A program made the translations under genes and the position numbers. From Escherichia phage LHE83: a DNA stretch of 64,000 bases. Under the pieces are notes generated by a model. The model did no database searches. It was not told where the DNA came from and was given only the letters and a program-made list of their open reading frames with translations. Positions 2,464 to 49,354 of the stretch are shown piece by piece (positions within the stretch are counted from its first letter, which is position 1; each line of letters begins with the position of its first letter). The stretch lies in sequence record OQ561750, one strand, 5' to 3'.

Positions 2464-2627
2464 CTACTGAAGAGGCCGAAAAACAAGCTAAAGAGGCACT
2501 GGATTTGCTTCTTAAAATTGGTAGTAAAATGATGAAAGAAAACGAGAAATACATCCAAGAAAATAAAATTCCGGATGGTCCTTTAGTAGGTAAACTAAGA
2601 AGAGGAAATCATAATGAAAGTTTATGA
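2460..2627 (+). CDS. hypothetical protein (55 aa)
   Basis: ATGA overlap with upstream stop; translated by hand; below the 60-aa track cutoff. Confidence 0.35.
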
Positions 2628-3102
2628 ACTAGAATTCCATGTACGTGATTCATCTGGACAGACACGTCCTTATGATGCTACAGTGTGTCTTATCTTTGTC
2701 GACAATGGTACGAATTCTATAACCCAGTTAGAAACACGATTAAAAGATATTAAGCTTCCAGAAAATATTATGATGAAGGCTTACCATAACAAAAATGTTG
2801 ATGTTGCTGAAGATTGTCCTTTTAGCCTGGCTGAAGCATTACATATCAAGGGTTATCGCCATCCGGACCCGTATGGCGAAGGAACAATGGACATTTTCTA
2901 TAAAGATACCGATAGAATGTCCAACGAACGTCTTAAAGGTCGTACTTATCTTATTTCCGCTACCGAAGACCTTATTGAAGTTGAACGTCAGATTTGGAAG
3001 CACTTTGATATTGGATTGCGCTTTACCATGACTGAAGACGCTATTCGTGATGCTAAGGTACGAGCTCGTATGTACGAGTACGGTCCTATCGGTGGTTACT
3101 AA
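2614..3102 (+). CDS. mrh: hypothetical protein (162 aa) at the T4 mrh position
   Basis: Size and position between soc and the mod genes match T4 mrh; sequence not verified. Confidence 0.4.
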
Positions 3103-3969: not shown

Positions 3970-4584
3970 ATGTTATATCCAAGCCATAAATTAGCAGAAT
4001 TTATCAACAACGCCAAATGCGATGATTTCCGTGAGAATACTCAGATAGAAATTGATGAGGTGTATTCTGATTTAGAACAGAGCACGCTCTGGCAGTGTAT
4101 GGAAAATAAACCAGATACTATCCAGGAAACTCTGAACAAAATTATTCGTAAGAACCTGACTTCTGCAGTGCCTGATAAGTTGTATCGCGGAATTTCTAAG
4201 AAGACTATGGCATATCTTGAATCTACGATGTGCGTAGGTGCTGTAATTGAATTCGACCGTGTGATGAGCTTCTCAAAAGATTTCAATGTAGCTCGTAACT
4301 TCGCATCTTATAACTTCTACGGCACATTTAATATCTTTTGTATTAATGATGCACCATTTGTGTACAATTATCAGGAAGAAATCTTTAAAATGTTATGTGC
4401 CGCGCCCCCTGAAGAGTTCCCAGGTGCATTTCCTGAATCTACCCGTGTAGCAAACTTACAATTAATCAATGATGAAGATGAGATGATGTTCCCTGCGGGA
4501 ACTACGCTGAGCGTAGACTCTATTGAGAGAAATCCTAAATGGAATAATTACACCATTTGGAATCTTTCCGTTCTTTCTTACTGA
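3970..4584 (+). CDS. modA: ADP-ribosyltransferase, ModA-like
   Basis: 204 aa; ART motifs R (LYRGI), SFS, E-x-E (EDEMM); paralogue of previous ORF. Confidence 0.55.
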   Translation: MLYPSHKLAEFINNAKCDDFRENTQIEIDEVYSDLEQSTLWQCMENKPDTIQETLNKIIRKNLTSAVPDKLYRGISKKTMAYLESTMCVGAVIEFDRVMSFSKDFNVARNFASYNFYGTFNIFCINDAPFVYNYQEEIFKMLCAAPPEEFPGAFPESTRVANLQLINDEDEMMFPAGTTLSVDSIERNPKWNNYTIWNLSVLSY

Positions 4585-4653
4585 ACCACCCGGTTTAATT
4601 GAAAGGCAAAGTCCTTGATTCATTATACCGTCGAAAATTTAAAGCAAAAAAGT

Positions 4654-4682
4654 GTTTACTTTACCGAGCAACATGATACTAT
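4654..4682 (+). promoter_or_regulatory. early promoter (GTTTAC, 17 bp, TACTAT, AGACCTATCA)
   Basis: Matches the recurrent promoter block of this genome. Confidence 0.55.
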
Positions 4683-4722
4683 AGACCTATCAGCTAATCG
4701 TCCGTAAGATGAGAAAAATATT

Positions 4723-5472
4723 ATGCCTACTATTAAAACTAACGATGAATTTGAGTTAAAGGTTTACAAACGTCGCGAACACACTAAAGCCTCTGCCAAA
4801 AAACGTGGTAAGGACTTTAACCTGTCTAGTAAGTACGTTCGTAGACTTCTTGAACAAAAAGTGTGTGCATATTCAGGCGAGCGCTTTGATGAGAATTCAG
4901 ATAAAGATAAGATTTCGTTTGAACGCTTTAACAACGATATAGGTTATATCGAAGGTAATGTAATCCCGGTTAAAGTTAAGTACAACGGGTTGCGAGCTGA
5001 TTTGTCTTTAGATGAATTGAAACGTGCACAGACTCGTTTAGCGTCCCGTATTTCAGGTGGTTCTAAAATGCCTAATAGTTTTAAAGTTACCCCAGATAAT
5101 TATTATAAAATTCGTAAAATAGTTAAAAATATTAAAGATACCCAAAGAGGTCTTAAAAAGCGTGAAAAACGTCTTAAGGACCTTATTAAATCAGGAGCCA
5201 CTGATAATACCCCTTCTGTCATCGCGGTTAAGGCCCGTATCCATGGTTCTAACGCTTCAATAGGTACTATGGAAAAGGGTCTTAAATCTTTAATTGGTGG
5301 GCCTGATTGGCGTGTCAAGTTTAAATTGTCTGAAGCAGAAACGCGTTACGATATGTATGATAAAATTATTCAAGGTCTGGAGCGTTTAGAACACCTTTCT
5401 TTTATTGACAAAATGAAGTTGAAAAAAGGTCTTCCGCTGAATGCTTCAATTTTTTCACTGATTAGAGGTTAA
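4723..5472 (+). CDS. srd: basic Lys-rich protein at the T4 srd position
   Basis: 249 aa; size and position as T4 Srd; sequence identity not verified. Confidence 0.4.
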   Translation: MPTIKTNDEFELKVYKRREHTKASAKKRGKDFNLSSKYVRRLLEQKVCAYSGERFDENSDKDKISFERFNNDIGYIEGNVIPVKVKYNGLRADLSLDELKRAQTRLASRISGGSKMPNSFKVTPDNYYKIRKIVKNIKDTQRGLKKREKRLKDLIKSGATDNTPSVIAVKARIHGSNASIGTMEKGLKSLIGGPDWRVKFKLSEAETRYDMYDKIIQGLERLEHLSFIDKMKLKKGLPLNASIFSLIRG

Positions 5473-5773: not shown

Positions 5774-7101
5774 TTACATTTGAAGACTTGAACAACGGCC
5801 AGAGGACGGCCTTTAAAGAAATCATTGAAGCTATTAAACGACGTAAGGGTGAATGGATTACATTGAACGGTCCTGCTGGTACAGGTAAAACAACCCTTAC
5901 CAAATTTATTCTTGACCATCTAGTCAAGAATGGTGAACTCGGAGTTATTTTGACTGCGCCTACTCATGCGGCCAAAAAGGTATTGTCGAAACTCGCAGGT
6001 CAAGAAGCATCAACAATTCATAGAATTCTAAAAATTAACCCTACTACGTACGAAGACCAGGACATCTTTGAACAACGCGAAGCTCCTGACTTGAGCAAAT
6101 GTAATGTTCTAGTTGTTGACGAAGGCTCGATGATTGACGGTAAGCTGTTTAAGATTATTGAATCCTCCGTGCCACCATGGTGTACTGTATTAGGGATTGG
6201 CGACAGAGCTCAGCTACAGCCAGTGGAACCTGGAAGTGATGGTAGCCCTCAGTTGTCTCCATTCTTTACACATCCAAAAATCAAACAATTACATTTGACT
6301 GAAGTGATGCGTAGTAATGCTCCTATCATTGAGGTGGCTACTGAAATCCGTAATGGTGGGTGGTTTAGAGATTGTGTATTCGAAGGACATGGTGTCCATG
6401 GTTTTAAATCCCAAACAGCATTAAAAGATTTTATGATGAATTATTTTTCCATTGTAAAAGATGCTGATGCCCTGTTTGAGAATAGGATGTTTGCTTATAC
6501 CAATAAATCGGTTGAAAAGCTGAATAGCATTATTCGTAAAAAGCTTTATGAAACCGATGCACCTTATATCAAGGGCGAAATCCTAGTGATGCAAGAGCCT
6601 TTTATGAAGGAACTTGAATACGATGGTAAGAAATTCTCTGAAACCATTTTTAATAACGGACAAATGGTTCGTATTCTGGATGTGAACCATACCTCGTTGT
6701 TTTTGTCTGCTAAGGATGTAGGCACTCGTCAAATGATTAATTACTGGGACCTGCAAGTAGAATCTGTTGATGAAGACGACGAGTACTATGTAGAGCATTT
6801 AAAGGTTATCGATGAGGCTTCAGTTGAGAAGTTCCATTATTTCTTGGCTAAGGTTGCTACAGAGTACAAAGCCATGCGTGGTAGTGGTAAGAAACCTAAG
6901 TGGGCTGATTTCTGGAAAGCCAAGCGAATGTTCAGTAAGGTTCGAGCTCTTCCTGTGAGCACTGTTCATAAATCCCAAGGACTTACAGTCCAAAACAGTT
7001 TCATCTATACTCCATGCATGCATATGGCTGATGCGAATTTAGCTTCACAGCTGGCTTATGTTAGTATTACTCGTGCTCGTACTGACGCCTACTACGTTTG
7101 A
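5770..7101 (+). CDS. dda: Dda DNA helicase (SF1B)
   Basis: 443 aa; Walker A GPAGTGKT; N-terminus MITFEDLNNGQR as recalled for T4 Dda. Confidence 0.9.
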   Translation: MITFEDLNNGQRTAFKEIIEAIKRRKGEWITLNGPAGTGKTTLTKFILDHLVKNGELGVILTAPTHAAKKVLSKLAGQEASTIHRILKINPTTYEDQDIFEQREAPDLSKCNVLVVDEGSMIDGKLFKIIESSVPPWCTVLGIGDRAQLQPVEPGSDGSPQLSPFFTHPKIKQLHLTEVMRSNAPIIEVATEIRNGGWFRDCVFEGHGVHGFKSQTALKDFMMNYFSIVKDADALFENRMFAYTNKSVEKLNSIIRKKLYETDAPYIKGEILVMQEPFMKELEYDGKKFSETIFNNGQMVRILDVNHTSLFLSAKDVGTRQMINYWDLQVESVDEDDEYYVEHLKVIDEASVEKFHYFLAKVATEYKAMRGSGKKPKWADFWKAKRMFSKVRALPVSTVHKSQGLTVQNSFIYTPCMHMADANLASQLAYVSITRARTDAYYV

Positions 7102-7108
7102 GGAAAAT

Positions 7109-7348
7109 ATGATTAAAGTAACTAAAGACCAATTTTATAAGTTGAAATTCGAAACCGAACATATTATTAAAGTCAACCAAAATAATATCAGCATTAGGCA
7201 AAAGGCCCATACTGTCCTGAACTCTCTTAAAGAGATTGAAAGTGATTTTATTGCAGTACAAAATCTGATGGACGACAATATCTCTTCGGTTTATATTGAA
7301 GACTACACCGTTGGCCAAATCCGAGACCTTATGAGGTACGTTAAATGA
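7109..7348 (+). CDS. hypothetical protein (79 aa)
   Basis: ATG with GAGGAAAA SD just after dda stop. Confidence 0.45.
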   Translation: MIKVTKDQFYKLKFETEHIIKVNQNNISIRQKAHTVLNSLKEIESDFIAVQNLMDDNISSVYIEDYTVGQIRDLMRYVK

Positions 7349-8019
7349 AAGATATAATTATTGACTTTGAAACCTTTGCCACTACTCAAAATGCAGCGGT
7401 TATCGACCTAGCCGTAATTGCTTACGACCCTAATCCAGAGGTTGTAGAAACGTTTGAAGAGCTTACTAAACGAGGCCTTCGTATTAAATTTGACCTCGCT
7501 TCTCAACGTGATAAACGACTGTTTTCTAAAAGCACGTTGCAGTGGTGGAAAGAGCAAGGGCCTGAAGCGCGTAAAAACCTGGCTCCATCTGAAATTGATG
7601 TGTCCACTTCTATTGGTCTCGGTAATTTCCTGGAATACTGTCGTAAAAACGAAGTAGACCAATGGAAATCCCAGATGTGGTGTCGTGGAATGTCCTTTGA
7701 CTTTCCTATCTTAGTCGACCTTATTCGTGATGCTTATCGTTCTGAAGGGGTTCCTGAGAATGAAATCGATACCAGTAAATTAGAACCGGTTAAATTCTGG
7801 AACCAACGTGACATCCGTACAGCTATTGAAGCATATTCACTAACTCGTGGATTGAGCATGTGTCCTCTGCCTAACGGAACATTGAACGGCTTTGTTGCTC
7901 ATGACTCCATCCATGACTGTGCTAAGGATATCTTGATGCTGAAATATGCCCAACGTTATGCCTTAGGCCTGGAAGATGTCCCTGAGAATCCGGACCCATT
8001 AAGTATAAAAAATCGATAA
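7345..8019 (+). CDS. dexA: exonuclease A (DexA, DEDDh-type)
   Basis: 224 aa; IIDFET N-terminus and HDSIHDCAKD C-terminal motif as recalled for T4 DexA. Confidence 0.85.
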   Translation: MKDIIIDFETFATTQNAAVIDLAVIAYDPNPEVVETFEELTKRGLRIKFDLASQRDKRLFSKSTLQWWKEQGPEARKNLAPSEIDVSTSIGLGNFLEYCRKNEVDQWKSQMWCRGMSFDFPILVDLIRDAYRSEGVPENEIDTSKLEPVKFWNQRDIRTAIEAYSLTRGLSMCPLPNGTLNGFVAHDSIHDCAKDILMLKYAQRYALGLEDVPENPDPLSIKNR

Positions 8020-8023
8020 AAGT

Positions 8024-8052
8024 GTTTACTTCTCCTCATGACATGTTATTAT
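8024..8052 (+). promoter_or_regulatory. early promoter in hairpin cassette (GTTTAC, 17 bp, TATTAT)
   Basis: Arms CTCCTCATG (8032-8040) and CATGAGGAG (8065-8073); 3' arm contains the SD of the next gene. Confidence 0.55.
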
Positions 8053-8079
8053 CTACCCTATCAACATGAGGAGAACAAA

Positions 8080-8589
8080 ATGAAAATTTATCGAGTCGAG
8101 TCATCGTTCAGTATCTTAGATAACAGCGATGTTATAGCAATCACTCACCAACAGTGCCGCCAATTAACACCGTATAGAGGCTCGTTTGATGAATGGAGCG
8201 AAGGTTGGTTATTAGAAGTAGGTTTCGACAGACCCAATTTTAGGCACCACCATACCAATAATAAAAATATTCCGCTACCAGGTCAAGACAAGTTGTTGGT
8301 GGAAAATTCTAATAAAAGCATTAGAACTAAGTGGAACCAGCCTGATTATGAAGGCTGTGATGATTATATTCCAGGTTGGTTTGTTAATCTCTACCATTTT
8401 GCTTTTGCCAGTGAGTATGATATGATGCGCTGGTTCACTCGTGAAGAGCGTGAAGAATTATCTTCTAAAGGATTCTATCTTGCCGTTTACGAAATCCCTG
8501 AAGATGAGGTTGTCATTGGTGGCCGCCAAGTAATGTTCCGCAAATCCCATGCTGAACTCGTAGATTTTATTGAATTGAGAACAATATGA
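8080..8589 (+). CDS. hypothetical protein (169 aa)
   Basis: ATG with GAGGAG SD; track ORF start 8038 falls inside the promoter. Confidence 0.5.
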   Translation: MKIYRVESSFSILDNSDVIAITHQQCRQLTPYRGSFDEWSEGWLLEVGFDRPNFRHHHTNNKNIPLPGQDKLLVENSNKSIRTKWNQPDYEGCDDYIPGWFVNLYHFAFASEYDMMRWFTREEREELSSKGFYLAVYEIPEDEVVIGGRQVMFRKSHAELVDFIELRTI

Positions 8590-9134
8590 AATTTAATTAC
8601 AACCCTAAATACACCCCGAATCCGGCAGCTAAACTGATTGATTTTGATGTTTTAAGCACTTATGTATGCCCTGTTAAACCACTGGAAATTAAGGAACCTG
8701 CTATGAATACTCAGACTATCGAAATCGGCAAAACCTACAAACTGGTTGAACCTGAAATTAAAACTAAGGCCTTGATTTCCGGCCATAAAACCCTGACTGA
8801 TGTTTTTGGTGAAGGCGAATTTATTGTTGAAGAATTTGCCAAAAGTGAGTGGTTCTCTAAAGCCTATATTCTCCACGGCCGTCGTTTAGACAATAACAAA
8901 ATTGAGCAAACCCTGGTTTATGAAGATGAGTTCATCCTGTTCCAAGAAGTTGAAGAACAAGACCCTACCGACCTTCTAACTCGTGCTGTGTCTATCCGTC
9001 GTCCTTTTGATAATCCTATCTGTGGATGGGTAACAGACCAGTGGGTTGAAGACGGTGTTGAGCTGCTGAACGTTGTACATGCTGGTGATTTTAGCGTAGT
9101 ACCTCGTAGTGCAGTGGTTAATGTATTGAATTAG
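8586..9134 (+). CDS. hypothetical protein (182 aa), paralogue of 9208-9759
   Basis: Shared C-terminal motif TDQWVE.GV.L.N.V..G.F.VVP.S with the next ORF. Confidence 0.5.
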   Translation: MKFNYNPKYTPNPAAKLIDFDVLSTYVCPVKPLEIKEPAMNTQTIEIGKTYKLVEPEIKTKALISGHKTLTDVFGEGEFIVEEFAKSEWFSKAYILHGRRLDNNKIEQTLVYEDEFILFQEVEEQDPTDLLTRAVSIRRPFDNPICGWVTDQWVEDGVELLNVVHAGDFSVVPRSAVVNVLN

Positions 9135-9136
9135 TA

Positions 9137-9165
9137 GTTTACTTTATCGAGAGCCATGTTATAAT
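9137..9165 (+). promoter_or_regulatory. early promoter in hairpin (GTTTAC, 17 bp, TATAAT)
   Basis: Stem GAGAGCCAT / ATGGCTCTC encloses the -10 region. Confidence 0.55.
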
Positions 9166-9207
9166 GGCTCTCATGGAGAATAAACTTATTAACCAAGAGA
9201 GAAAATT

Positions 9208-9759
9208 ATGATTACTATCGGTGAAATTGTTCGTGTATCCAAAGAATCTCGCTCAAAAGCCGCAGGTCGTTTTGTTGAAGTTGCAGGTATTCGTACTAAT
9301 TTAGTAGGCGGAATTAAAGAAGTTAAAGTGCGTATTATTCCTAAAAATGGCCATACCGAAACCGAATTTGCCTATGTGCATCCTAAATTCTTGGAATCGA
9401 CTGAATTTACTGGACACATCGCTCCTGTAGTTGAAGAAGTTGAATCCCATGATGGGTATGTATGTGAAAGCAATGATATCCGTGGCGTAGTAGCTCAAGA
9501 CGTTGAAACTATTGACCAATCTCATGTTGGTGTTGATTTCAAATGGAAATTAGGTAAAGGTGTCTTTTTCGTTTCACCTAAACCGTTTGAATACAATTGC
9601 AAGTATGGCCCGACTTATGAAACCACTAGTATGTCCGGTTACATCACAGACCAATGGGTTGAAGAAGGTGTTAAGCTGTATAACATCGTGTTCCTTGGCA
9701 CCTTTAAAGTAGTTCCTGAAAGTTTTATTGTTGAGTACGCTGATATTCATTTTGCATAA
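9208..9759 (+). CDS. hypothetical protein (183 aa), paralogue of 8586-9134
   Basis: C-terminal similarity to previous ORF; own promoter. Confidence 0.5.
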   Translation: MITIGEIVRVSKESRSKAAGRFVEVAGIRTNLVGGIKEVKVRIIPKNGHTETEFAYVHPKFLESTEFTGHIAPVVEEVESHDGYVCESNDIRGVVAQDVETIDQSHVGVDFKWKLGKGVFFVSPKPFEYNCKYGPTYETTSMSGYITDQWVEEGVKLYNIVFLGTFKVVPESFIVEYADIHFA

Positions 9760-9771
9760 AGTTTAAAAACA

Positions 9772-9801
9772 GTATACACTATGGTAGGGTAGTGATACTA
9801 T
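9772..9801 (+). promoter_or_regulatory. early promoter in hairpin (GTATAC, 18 bp, TACTAT)
   Basis: Arms TAGGGTA / TACCCTA flank the -10. Confidence 0.5.
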
Positions 9802-9831
9802 TACCCTATCAACAAATGAGAGGAAAATAAA

Positions 9832-10050
9832 ATGGCTAAAGTTACTGTGAACTCGACTCGTGAAGAATTTGAAGATGTTCTGTTCAACCCTGATTTAATC
9901 GTGGTTCAAAAGGAACATTCTGATACGTTTTCTCATTTATCGTCGGTTTATGTATACGAAAACCAAGGTGACAAAAATCCTATCTATGCAGTGTTCCGTG
10001 AAATCACTGCTGAAGGCATTGACTACTGGAAGGAGACTTATAATGTCTAA
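9832..10050 (+). CDS. hypothetical protein (72 aa)
   Basis: ATG with GAGAGGAAAA SD. Confidence 0.45.
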   Translation: MAKVTVNSTREEFEDVLFNPDLIVVQKEHSDTFSHLSSVYVYENQGDKNPIYAVFREITAEGIDYWKETYNV

Positions 10051-10447
10051 TGAAGCTAAATTTGAAGCCGGTAAATGGTACTATTTTAAAGATGAGGCGG
10101 CCGAAGCTGAATTCCGTCGTAGAGATATCAATAATATTGTAGCCGATGTTATTATTGAAGGTGAAGGTTTTTCCCCGGTTAAAATTTCAAATGGATGTGT
10201 AATCAACTTCGACCTGGTTTACGGCGATAATAAAGATATGGTTATATACGCTAGTGAGAGGAAATTTTTTACCGAAATGGTTGAAGTTGAGTGCGACGAA
10301 GAATTGGATGAAGACCGTGATTATGGCTACGATGATAGTGATGATCTGTCCGAACTAAGTGATTTCCCTTTGACTAAAATCACTATCTCTAATAATTCTG
10401 AAGCCTGGTCAGTTTACCAGATGTTGAAAGCTCACTTTAAGGAATAA
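10043..10447 (+). CDS. hypothetical protein (134 aa) with acidic C-terminus
   Basis: ATG with AAGGAG SD; overlaps upstream stop. Confidence 0.45.
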   Translation: MSNEAKFEAGKWYYFKDEAAEAEFRRRDINNIVADVIIEGEGFSPVKISNGCVINFDLVYGDNKDMVIYASERKFFTEMVEVECDEELDEDRDYGYDDSDDLSELSDFPLTKITISNNSEAWSVYQMLKAHFKE

Positions 10448-10448
10448 T

Positions 10449-10625
10449 ATGCCACTTTATGATTACAAATGCCAATCTGAAGACTGTGCAAAAGAATACG
10501 AAAAAATCAAGAAAATCTCTGAAAGAGATAATGATGTTTGTCCTGATTGCCATCGGCTGGCTGTTCGGTTAGTCTCGGCTCCTAAACATGTTAATGGCGG
10601 TTTTTACGACCTGCTGACTAAGTGA
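10449..10625 (+). CDS. zinc-ribbon protein, FmdB-like (58 aa)
   Basis: MPLYDYKC...C(x2)...CPDC pattern typical of FmdB-family zinc ribbons; hand-translated. Confidence 0.45.
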   Translation: MPLYDYKCQSEDCAKEYEKIKKISERDNDVCPDCHRLAVRLVSAPKHVNGGFYDLLTK

Positions 10626-10631
10626 GAAATT

Positions 10632-10892
10632 ATGAAATATATTAATCGTTCTATTGCAGCTCTCGTATTAGCAGTTTCTTTGGTTGGATGTACTGATGCC
10701 GATAATGCTACCCGTGTATTGGATGCAAATGGCTACGAACAAATCCAAATCACAGGATACAACCTATTTGGCTGCTCTGAAGATGATTTCCAACGTACAG
10801 GCTTTATTGCTGTGGGTCCGACAGGTAAAAGGGTTGAAGGAACTGTTTGTTCTGGATTATTCTTTAAAAAGTCGACCATTCGATTTGATTAA
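10632..10892 (+). CDS. putative lipoprotein (86 aa)
   Basis: Signal peptide with lipobox LVGC. Confidence 0.5.
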   Translation: MKYINRSIAALVLAVSLVGCTDADNATRVLDANGYEQIQITGYNLFGCSEDDFQRTGFIAVGPTGKRVEGTVCSGLFFKKSTIRFD

Positions 10893-10908
10893 GGGCTTCG
10901 GCCCTTTT
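10893..10908 (+). terminator. hairpin terminator (GGGC-UUCG-GCCC plus U4)
   Basis: Short GC stem with UUCG loop and U-tract directly after the lipoprotein stop. Confidence 0.5.
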
Positions 10909-10909
10909 A

Positions 10910-10934
10910 TGCTTTAAGTGAAATGGGATAATAT
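10910..10934 (+). promoter_or_regulatory. MotA-dependent middle promoter for gene 39
   Basis: MotA box TGCTTTA, 12 nt, then -10 TAATAT. Confidence 0.5.
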
Positions 10935-10958
10935 TCTCCTACTACATGAGGAAATAAC

Positions 10959-12776
10959 ATGATTAAGAATGAAATTAAAGTACTGTCCGACATTGAACAT
11001 ATCAAAAAACGTAGTGGGATGTATATTGGCTCAAGTGCTAATGAAGCTCACGGTCGATTCCTGTTTGGTAATTTTACACAGGTAAACTATGTTCCTGGAC
11101 TGGTTAAATTAATTGATGAAATCATTGATAACTCTGTCGATGAAGCTATTCGTACCAATTTTAAATTCGCAAATAAAATTGATGTTCAAATTAAGAATAA
11201 CCAGGTTTCAGTTTCTGATAATGGTCGTGGTATTCCACAAGCAATGGTCACCGACCAAAATGGTGAACAGATTCCAGGTCCTGTAGCTGCATGGACTATT
11301 CCAAAGGCAGGTGGTAACTTTGGAGATGACGCTGAGCGTAAGACAGGCGGCATGAATGGTGTCGGTAGTAGTTTAACTAATATCTTCTCTGTTTTGTTCA
11401 CCGGCATCACCTCTGATGGTGAGAATGAGATTACTGTTAACTGTTCAAACGGAATGGAAAACAAAGGTTGGTCTACTAAGAAATCTAAAGGTAAGGGTAC
11501 TTCGGTTATATTCACCCCAGACTTTAATCATTTCGAAGAAAATAGCCTGTCACAAATTTATCTGGATATTACATTAGACCGATTGCAAACTCTGGCCGTA
11601 GTTTATCCTGATATTCAATTTACTTTTAATGGTAAAAAAGTAGATGGCAACTTTAAAAAGTATGCTAAGCAATTTGGTGAAGACTTTGTAATCCAAGAAA
11701 CCGATAATGTTTCGATGGCATTTACTCCTTCTCCGGATGGATTCCGTCAACTGACTTATGTAAACAATATCCACACCAAGAATGGTGGCCACCACGTTGA
11801 ATGTGTATTCGATGATATTTGTGAACACCTTCTGCCAGGCATTAAAAAGAAATACCGTGGAATTGAAGTAACTAAAGCTCGTGTTAAAGAATGCCTTACG
11901 ATGGTGATGTTCATTCGTGATATGAGCAACATGCGTTTTGATTCACAGACTAAAGAACGTTTGACCTCTCCTTTTGGTGAGATTCGCAATCATATCCAAA
12001 TTGATGCTAAGAAAATTGCTCAAGCCATTCTTAAAGTTGATGGGTTGATTATGCCTATCGTTGAAGCTGCTTTAGCACGTAAATTAGCAGCTGAAAAGGC
12101 TGCCGAAACTAAAGCCGCTAAGAAAGCTTCTAAAGCCAAGGTCCATAAGCATATTAAAGCTAACCTATACGGCAAAGATGCTGATACAACCCTGTTCCTA
12201 ACCGAAGGTGATTCCGCTATGGGTCCTTTCATTGAAGTTCGTAATAAAGACCTTCAAGGTGGTTACCCATTGCGTGGTAAGGTTATGAATACCTGGGGAA
12301 TGACAGCAACAGATATCATGAAGAACAAGGAACTATTTGATATCTGTGCAATCACTGGATTGGTTATTGGTGAACCCGCAGATAAAACCAACTATCGTAA
12401 TATTGCTATTATGACCGATGCCGATGTGGATGGTACTGGTTCGATTTATCCATCATTGCTAGCCTTCTTTAGTCAATGGCCCGAATTGTTCGAACAAGGC
12501 CGAGTACGGTTCTGTAAAACTCCGGTGATTATTGCTCAGGTTGGTAAAGAACAGGAATGGTTCTATGATGTGCCTAGTTATACCAAAGCTAAGGACTCTC
12601 TACCAAAACACTCCATTCGTTATATCAAAGGACTGGGTTCTCTTGAGAAGGCTGAATACCGTCGAATGATTCAAGACCCTAAATTTGATGTGGTTCAATT
12701 ACCTGAAGATTGGAAAGAACAGTTCGAAATGCTCCTTGGTAATGACCCACAACTCCGTAAGGCCTGGATGTCGTAA
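10959..12776 (+). CDS. 39: DNA topoisomerase II large subunit, unsplit gp39 (ATPase plus Toprim)
   Basis: 605 aa; GHKL ATPase IDNSVDEA plus Toprim LFLTEGDSAMG and MTDADVDG in a single ORF. Confidence 0.9.
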   Translation: MIKNEIKVLSDIEHIKKRSGMYIGSSANEAHGRFLFGNFTQVNYVPGLVKLIDEIIDNSVDEAIRTNFKFANKIDVQIKNNQVSVSDNGRGIPQAMVTDQNGEQIPGPVAAWTIPKAGGNFGDDAERKTGGMNGVGSSLTNIFSVLFTGITSDGENEITVNCSNGMENKGWSTKKSKGKGTSVIFTPDFNHFEENSLSQIYLDITLDRLQTLAVVYPDIQFTFNGKKVDGNFKKYAKQFGEDFVIQETDNVSMAFTPSPDGFRQLTYVNNIHTKNGGHHVECVFDDICEHLLPGIKKKYRGIEVTKARVKECLTMVMFIRDMSNMRFDSQTKERLTSPFGEIRNHIQIDAKKIAQAILKVDGLIMPIVEAALARKLAAEKAAETKAAKKASKAKVHKHIKANLYGKDADTTLFLTEGDSAMGPFIEVRNKDLQGGYPLRGKVMNTWGMTATDIMKNKELFDICAITGLVIGEPADKTNYRNIAIMTDADVDGTGSIYPSLLAFFSQWPELFEQGRVRFCKTPVIIAQVGKEQEWFYDVPSYTKAKDSLPKHSIRYIKGLGSLEKAEYRRMIQDPKFDVVQLPEDWKEQFEMLLGNDPQLRKAWMS

Positions 12777-39081: not shown

Positions 39082-39109
39082 AGACCTATCAACTACATGA
39101 GGAAATAAA

Positions 39110-49325: not shown

Positions 49326-49354
49326 TTTACAAACTCTTGGGAGCAGAGTATAAT
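49325..49354 (+). promoter_or_regulatory. early promoter in hairpin (GTTTAC, 18 bp, TATAAT)
   Basis: Stem GGAGCA / TGCTCC around -10. Confidence 0.5.

Follow-up and report, generated by a model that had tools for sequence, protein, structure and literature searches.

We analyzed a 64,000-nucleotide (nt) stretch of Escherichia phage LHE83 (sequence record OQ561750), hereafter called the window, and focused on the interval between dexA (7345-8019, its left boundary) and the gene for the topoisomerase large subunit (10959-12776, 605 amino acids (aa), its right boundary). The list of open reading frames (ORFs) places seven ORFs between these two genes, all on the plus strand: motB.2 (169 aa, 8080-8589), motB.1 (182 aa, 8586-9134), motB (183 aa, 9208-9759), cef (72 aa, 9832-10050), goF (also named comC-alpha; 134 aa, 10043-10447), 39.2 (58 aa, 10449-10625) and 39.1 (86 aa, 10632-10892). 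The start ATG of motB.1 overlaps the motB.2 stop, and goF overlaps the stop of cef by 8 nt. Antisense ORFs in the interval are short and unremarkable and the base composition is even. An initial annotation had already reported seven ORFs here, among them two tandem paralogues of about 182 aa, a 58-aa FmdB-like zinc ribbon and an 86-aa lipoprotein with the lipobox LVGC, and these descriptions are all borne out by our analysis. The picture changes for the identity of the genes, which had been regarded as different from those of T4.

The 3.8 kb around the interval are 99.4% identical at the nucleotide level to Escherichia phage LQ5, whereas PSD9, WG01, QL01, IME08, JS98 and other Dhakavirus genomes show 88-97% nucleotide identity to the interval and are collinear over the same 3.8 kb. 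Judged by its sequence, the window phage is a Dhakavirus (Straboviridae, Tevenvirinae) and therewith a JS98-like T4-type coliphage. The collinear genes are annotated as motB.2, motB.1, motB, cef, goF (comC-alpha), 39.2 and 39.1 in JS98, IME08, QL01 and PSD9, and the annotated gene set is the same and in the same order in JS98, IME08, QL01, WG01, PSD9 and LQ5. BLASTP against the T4 proteins and tblastn synteny give an identical order and strand from dexA to gene 39 in T4 for all seven genes, with identities to the T4 orthologues of 32-91%, and the Pfam and PHROG assignments agree with this orthology. We hold with high confidence that the interval is the Dhakavirus version of the early dispensable block of T4, arranged as dexA, motB.2-motB.1, motB, cef-goF-39.2-39.1 and gene 39. 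The motB region is dispensable in T4 (PMC1702504).

Two statements of the initial annotation have to be revised at this point, namely that the 169-aa ORF sits where T4 has motB and that the sizes of the other ORFs do not match T4 genes. Because of the T4 gene order and the BLASTP, Pfam and PHROG results, the 169-aa ORF is MotB.2 and the tandem paralogues are MotB.1 and MotB, MotB being the second of the two. The apparent size mismatch is caused by frame errors in the T4 reference: NC_000866 (= AF158101) mis-frames motB.1, 39.2 and 39.1. In this record motB.1 stops at ...TDQWIGRWR*, with the missing EDGVELLNVVHAGEYSVVPRSAVVAILN encoded further on in the +1 frame; 39.2 ends at ...SAS*, and PKHGNNGFYDLLKG follows in another frame; and the signal peptide of 39.1, MKYISRSIAALVLAVSLINSTDAD, is found upstream of the annotated start but in a different frame. 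Only NC_000866 and the old partial records M89919 and X06220 have the mis-framed sequence in common. Re-sequenced T4 genomes (T4T, KJ477684-6, MT984581, OL964735 and others) are 97.1% identical to the reference over 481 bp and 2 nt shorter. In MT984581, MotB.1 counts 143 aa with a complete MotB-type C-terminus, 39.2 counts 58 aa and 39.1 counts 86 aa with the lipobox LIGC, the latter two sizes being equal to those in the window. Given that the re-sequenced T4 sizes agree, the window agrees with actual T4 except that MotB.1 is extended by 39 residues at its N-terminus. We rejected the option that the T4 frameshifts represent real pseudogenization: all independently re-sequenced T4 genomes differ from the reference at these genes and carry intact ORFs. 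Within the retrieved stretches the loci concerned are located at 2399-2860 and 4222-4462 of NC_000866 (mis-framed) and at 811-1242 and 2621-3060 of MT984581. In a study from 2025, MotB.1 is given as a protein of 13.8 kDa (119 aa) and NC_000866.4 is cited for the constructs (PMC12152347), which may thus represent the truncated form.

The first gene of the block, motB.2, encodes a protein with 69% identity to T4 MotB.2 over 166 aa (E 7e-86, BLASTP); it matches phrog_1106, and the collinear JS98 gene is annotated motB.2. MotB.2 forms a narrow, well conserved family that tblastn detects in 776 phage records, against 1764 records with DexA. The local Pfam (a copy without PF26820), NCBIfam and PADLOC libraries gave no MotB.2 match; its homologues carry a precomputed PF26820 annotation. 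A profile search of the PDB sequences with MotB.2 found nothing, and an AlphaFold2 (AF2) model based on an 18-sequence alignment reached a predicted local distance difference test (pLDDT) score of 37, which makes it unusable. An alternative start at 8038 was rejected, as it falls within the promoter and T4 MotB.2 begins with MKIYRVESS.

MotB.1 is 57% identical to its T4 orthologue (E 6e-19, BLASTP) and is matched by phrog_2333 over its full 182 aa (E 4e-86). Residues 44-126 match phrog_622, the GoF family (E 7e-6), and residues 142-177 match Pfam motB with 35.8 bits (cut-off 25). According to these profile matches, MotB.1 consists of a GoF-like N-domain and a MotB-like C-domain with the core TDQWVE.GV...VVP.S. 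MotB itself shows 49% identity to T4 MotB over its full length (E 1e-55, BLASTP), 172.8 bits against Pfam motB (PF17613; cut-off 25, E 6e-51) and an E-value of 2e-69 against phrog_1671 over residues 1-183. Its gene sits between motB.1 and cef, with its own early promoter and a RegB-type GGAG leader, GGAGAAUAAA. The paralogy of the two proteins is visible in their C-terminal 32 aa (59% identity, BLASTP E 1.6e-10), in the Pfam motB match of both and in a 44-nt DNA patch with 82% identity between the genes. At the TDQWVE(D/E)GV core (window 9033-9059 versus 9646-9672) the DNA identity amounts to 93% over 27 nt, synonymous sites included; this could result from gene conversion between the tandem paralogues or from codon constraint.

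Compared to T4, MotB of the window is 21 aa longer and MotB.1 begins with 39 additional residues, a stretch conserved among Dhakaviruses. A start of MotB.1 at Met40 is possible, with a good AAGGAA Shine-Dalgarno sequence; however, the 39 codons upstream of it are open, vary hardly at all among three Dhakaviruses and fall within the phrog_2333 profile. T4 MotB is toxic in E. coli, doubles the T4 burst size and binds DNA without regard to its sequence; it copurifies with H-NS and StpA and alters H-NS footprints (PMC6070864, PMC7827196). A common C-terminal domain of MotB and MotB.1, with probable origin by duplication, was described in a 2021 paper (PMC7827196), and the N-domains of MotB.1 and GoF are LSm-like according to the 2025 study (PMC12152347). 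By T4 orthology, MotB would be a non-specific DNA binder that alters H-NS binding, and MotB.1 would be a MotB paralogue with a GoF-type LSm-like N-domain. The C-terminal core motif also occurs without the remainder of either protein in a 68-aa ORF of Klebsiella phage KPV15 (3069-3275 of the KPV15 locus). This ORF resembles a 29-aa RB69 peptide noted by Patterson-West 2021, and the core may therefore occur as a stand-alone mini-protein.

The next three genes are cef, goF and 39.2. The 72-aa ORF shares 66% identity with T4 Cef (E 2e-34, BLASTP) and matches Pfam T4_Cef (PF24050) over its full length with 112.7 bits (cut-off 27, E 7e-33). Cef is so far described solely as a suppressor-tRNA modifier, which is also how the records annotate it, and literature searches on cef and on 39.1 returned nothing informative; by T4 orthology Cef would affect phage tRNA maturation. 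GoF is 32% identical to T4 GoF over the full length (141 columns, E 4e-20, BLASTP) and matches phrog_622 at E 1e-25. It differs from T4 GoF in the acidic linker. With 59% identity to JS98 and QL01 and 84% to PSD9, against 86-100% for its neighbours, goF is the fastest-diverging gene of the block, which suggests rapid evolution or allele exchange at goF alone. According to Kim 2025 (PMC12152347), the N-domain in the GoF/LSm-like family of Tevenvirinae is a five-stranded bent beta-sheet of LSm/SH3-like type. By T4 orthology, GoF would be an LSm-like protein tied to mRNA stability.

The 58-aa ORF is 91% identical to the reference T4 39.2 over 44 aa (E 1e-29, BLASTP), and a manual count against re-sequenced T4 39.2 gives 54 matching residues out of 58. 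It exceeds the cut-offs of Pfam Zn_ribbon_8 (PF09723; 43.9 bits, cut-off 34.4) and of the FmdB family model TIGR02605 (45.4 bits, cut-off 31.3). Its cysteine pairs are Cys8/Cys13 (C-x4-C) and Cys31/Cys34 (C-x2-C), and it shares with FmdB-type zinc ribbons the N-terminal MPxYxYxC...C and CPxC motifs. With tblastn it is found in 970 phage records, again against 1764 with DexA. GroEL/GroES is reportedly modulated by the 39.2 proteins of T4, RB69, RB43 and RB49, as studied by Ang and Georgopoulos in 2012. Within the FmdB family this GroEL modulation is the sole function on record for the T4 orthologue, whereas the RefSeq label 'transcriptional regulator' is a family name rather than an assayed activity. 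Passages in PMC5153855 and PMC4396842 that cite Ang & Georgopoulos 2012 equate 39.2 with NwgI, a 58-residue GroEL/GroES modulator. By orthology with T4, 39.2/NwgI would shift GroEL toward the open state. The suggestion of the initial annotation that such early regions often carry host-takeover genes holds in general terms, as several of these genes modulate the host in T4 (MotB with H-NS, 39.2/NwgI with GroEL), and by the same orthology the products of the block would generally be small host-modulating proteins.

The last gene of the block encodes the 39.1 orthologue, a predicted lipoprotein with 74% identity to T4 39.1 (E 6e-34, BLASTP). Its N-terminus, MKYINRSIAALVLAVSLVGC, combines positive charges (K2 and R6), the hydrophobic stretch SIAALVLAVSL and the lipobox LVGC. 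Cys20 of the lipobox is invariant in 71 homologues, and Cys48 and Cys73 are invariant in the family as well; UniRef names the relatives 'Lipoprotein'. By the E. coli lipoprotein rule, Thr rather than Asp at position +2 leads to outer-membrane sorting, and the Thr found here suggests this destination for 39.1. An intact 39.1 gene is also present in T2 (tblastn, residues 1-85, 81% identity); it is absent from the annotation of T2 record PV648364 because an antisense ORF is annotated in its place (4488-4874 of the T2 locus).

The expression signals of the block follow a regular layout. Scanning the window with the T4-early pattern TTTACW-N16-18-TAYWAT yields 13 occurrences, all on the plus strand, against 0.65 expected; two of them, at 8025 and 9138, head motB.2 and motB. 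The initial annotation assigned a promoter-hairpin cassette to each group of ORFs. Three such cassettes are indeed present, but cef, goF, 39.2 and 39.1 all share one, so that seven genes are served by three cassettes. Hairpin stability was compared with that of shuffled sequence (200 shuffles) and expressed as z-scores. In cassette 1, the early promoter of motB.2 (TTTACT-N16-TATTAT with TG before the -10 box, 8025-8052) overlaps an inverted repeat at 8030-8075 (-15.5 kcal/mol, z -3.1). Its left arm, TTCTCCTCATG, is part of the promoter spacer and its right arm, CATGAGGAGAA, covers the motB.2 Shine-Dalgarno sequence (GAGGAG) and GGAG 8070-8073. The T4 hairpin at this position has a different stem sequence, yet the pairing between arm and Shine-Dalgarno sequence is exact in both phages.

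Cassette 2 comprises the early promoter of motB (TTTACT-N16-TATAAT, 9138-9165) and the hairpin GAGAGCCAT/ATGGCTCTC at 9149-9172, which holds the -10 box in its loop (-23.4 kcal/mol, z -5.0, none of the 200 shuffles as stable). T4 and T2 have GGGACCA/TGGTCCC at the same position. After the hairpin follows GGAGAATAAA, whose GGAG (9175-9178) corresponds to the RegB site of the motB leader in T4. Cassette 3 heads the cef operon. Its promoter, TATACA-N17-TACTAT (9773-9801), is near-consensus and was identified by reading and a relaxed pattern; the hairpin (9782-9811) overlaps the -10 box and reaches -16.7 kcal/mol (z -3.1, again no shuffle as stable). T4 likewise has TATACA...TACTAT upstream of its own hairpin at cef, and QL01, T4 and phage Merlin all have hairpins at the cassette 3 position with other sequences. 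By our own reading, about 9 of the 16 early-type promoters in the window have a hairpin over or beside the -10 box. At many early promoters a conserved CCTATCAAC is seen just a few bases past the -10 box, close to where transcription is expected to begin (for example 8056-8064, 9804-9812 and 39085-39093).

The cef-39.1 unit ends in a terminator-like hairpin, AAGGGC-UUCG-GCCCUU with a T-rich tail (10891-10906, plus strand), the only one in 7000-11200; T4 and T2 have GGCCttcgGGCC at this position. Directly downstream, reading of the sequence points to a MotA-box-like middle promoter of gene 39 (TGCTTTA, 12 nt, TAATAT; 10910-10934, plus strand), and similar TGCTTT boxes are present in Merlin and KPV15. 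Its geometry was judged from established knowledge of T4 middle promoters. T4 shares the whole arrangement, with early promoters and hairpins at the same intergenic positions and a terminator plus MotA-type promoter before gene 39; it differs in having a small ORF between motB and cef that the window does not have. An Rfam scan of 7900-11100 returned only a chance sub-threshold snoRNA match. The topoisomerase gene that follows is a fusion of genes 39 and 60 in one 605-aa ORF (10959-12776), as in T2, whereas in T4 the large subunit is split by mobA and gene 60 carries a translational bypass.

Cassettes 1 to 3 have, by their sequence features, the architecture of the composite early-promoter/stem-loop cassettes (PeSLs) known from T4-type phages: an intergenic sigma-70-type early promoter fitting the T4/PST consensus TTTACW-N17-TAYWAT with an overlapping stem-loop (Arbiol 2010, Comeau 2014; PMC2839356, PMC4122927), most commonly between the boxes or over the -10 box (PMC2839356). 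The G-run/C-run stems of the RB49/phi1 PeSLs are not seen in the window, and action as terminator or attenuator, like recombination mediated by the cassette, is known for phi1/RB49 only, where one stem-loop lowered downstream lacZ expression to about the degree of a strong terminator (PMC2839356). On this basis we propose that the three units would be transcribed by host sigma-70 RNA polymerase straight after infection, each starting at its own PeSL. The stem-loop would form only in read-through transcripts that begin upstream: in cassette 1 it would sequester the motB.2 ribosome-binding site, and in cassettes 2 and 3 it would cap or attenuate the upstream message. As a consequence of this read-through masking, each unit would be expressed mainly from its own promoter. 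In T4, RegB cleaves at the GGAG in the motB leader and at the GGAU of motB.2 (PMC1702504), and the GGAG in both the motB.2 and the motB leader of the window would later permit RegB shut-off.

It might be argued that the promoter hairpins are fortuitous or act at the DNA level, for example as recombination hot spots by which gene cassettes are shuffled, and play no part in expression. Krisch and co-workers proposed PeSLs as recombination sites and observed mini-circles between PeSLs (PMC2839356). Also, the cassette at window 49326-49354, TTTACAAACTCTTGGGAGCAGAGTATAAT, is almost identical to the T4 motB cassette, TTTACAAACTCTTGGGACCAGAGTATAAT, although it resides at a different locus, which fits PeSL copies spreading or recombining between sites. 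The lacZ reduction by the phi1/RB49 PeSL speaks against this explanation. So does the behaviour of the stems: between T4 and the window they keep pairing at the same places while their sequences differ, which argues for selection on the pairing, and the cassette 1 arm pairs exactly with the Shine-Dalgarno sequence in both phages. Given these observations we consider a purely fortuitous or DNA-level origin unlikely, noting that recombination and RNA roles are not mutually exclusive.

The possible function of 39.1 deserves separate consideration. The protein is found in 1066 phage records with tblastn (1764 with DexA), and a profile search recovers 2231 clusters at 50% identity; among the best 150 of these, all are small stand-alone proteins. 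The family spans T4-like, Ackermannviridae, rhizobial and Pseudomonas phages and is conserved in phages of Escherichia, Klebsiella, Aeromonas, Pseudomonas, Burkholderia and Rhizobium hosts, with small early or accessory ORFs as neighbours in unrelated phages. A GTDB genome scan, which used a narrow pattern, produced only three contigs of metagenome-assembled genomes (MAGs), the family being nearly absent from the bacterial genomes scanned, and by its sequence distribution the family occurs almost only in phages and metagenomes. No Pfam, NCBIfam or PADLOC model covers the family, ten longer members contain no informative Pfam domains, and a profile search of the PDB sequences found nothing. The AF2 model, of fair quality (pLDDT 78), combines a signal helix with one amphipathic helix and a sheet of four strands, a predicted fold that is cystatin/PepSY-like. 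Small lipoprotein inhibitors and immunity proteins of the periplasm whose fold is cystatin-like or PepSY-like, such as the colicin M immunity protein and YpmB, are similarly built, with about 65 residues, a membrane anchor and one helix packed on a four-stranded antiparallel sheet.

Most likely, 39.1 would be exported and lipidated and would be held in the outer membrane on the periplasmic side, binding some envelope component there; a binding or inhibitory role in the periplasm, perhaps in superinfection exclusion, is no more than plausible. We tentatively put forward a broader idea, with rather low confidence: that 39.1 represents a very large family of small outer-membrane lipoproteins with a disulfide-stabilized cystatin/PepSY-like fold, acting on a conserved envelope component by superinfection exclusion or periplasmic enzyme inhibition, and hidden so far by the mis-framed T4 reference. 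The narrower explanation, in which 39.1 is a superinfection-exclusion factor that is anchored in the outer membrane and blocks the receptor or DNA entry of later phages like T5 Llp or Cor, seems to us somewhat more doubtful still. It would suit a secreted lipoprotein that is expressed early and has two more invariant cysteines besides that of the lipobox, from a large family nearly restricted to phages and metagenomes, and in Serratia phage 3M the 39.1 gene adjoins a gene annotated as putative superinfection exclusion protein. However, a BFVD search gave uncharacterized relatives only, and the spread over many host genera argues against one specific receptor being blocked, as phages of those hosts presumably use different receptors.

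Differences in gene content become apparent when more distant phages are considered. Within Dhakavirus and in comparison to T4 the content is the same. T2 has neither motB.2 nor motB.1 and carries two other ORFs instead; in KPV15 the mini-ORF with the MotB core motif is retained along with cef, 39.2 and 39.1; Merlin keeps cef, goF, 39.2 and 39.1 together with extra ORFs and an ORF annotated as MotB-like, in which tblastn did not detect MotB; and in phage Miller 39.1 is located elsewhere. The variable early region of the initial annotation therefore stands as far as it differs between genera, is dispensable in T4 and has PeSL-type surroundings, but the claim of non-T4 content does not. At subfamily level the term 'hyperplastic region' is fair by sequence comparison, while the seven genes themselves are widespread and already named. 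A hyperplastic insert specific to this lineage, with novel ORFs that have no relation to the local T4 genes and bring new anti-defence or host-takeover functions, is an explanation to which the differing dexA-gene 39 content among genera and the other sizes of three genes in the reference T4 annotation might seem to point, but it can be dismissed as highly improbable: the synteny comparison gives every ORF a named T4 orthologue in the same order (E-values of 4e-20 to 7e-86 among those cited, with MotB.1 at 6e-19; full-length coverage in six of seven), the re-sequenced T4 sizes agree, and the PADLOC models show no meaningful match for any of the seven ORFs.

Several points weigh against a straightforward transfer of the T4 picture to the window phage. 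Gene identities, order, motifs and hairpins are demonstrated here, whereas functions come from the T4 literature or are inferred, and all product functions in the window phage are carried over from T4 by orthology. GoF and MotB are only 32% and 49% identical to their T4 counterparts, so that their activities may differ. For MotB.2 and 39.1 we found no experimental data in the literature for any phage. The third promoter has a non-consensus -35 box (TATACA), and the cassette hairpins carry no U-tracts, which leaves termination, attenuation or mere RNA stabilization as their possible effect.

Summarizing, the genes themselves, the paralogy of MotB and MotB.1, the zinc ribbon and the promoter/stem-loop cassettes of this interval have already been described for T4-type phages, and there is little new biology in it. 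The value of the analysis is chiefly corrective. Annotation of the interval should follow T4 nomenclature, and the mis-framing in NC_000866, which hides the C-domain of MotB.1 and the lipoprotein signal of 39.1, can mislead human as well as automated comparisons.

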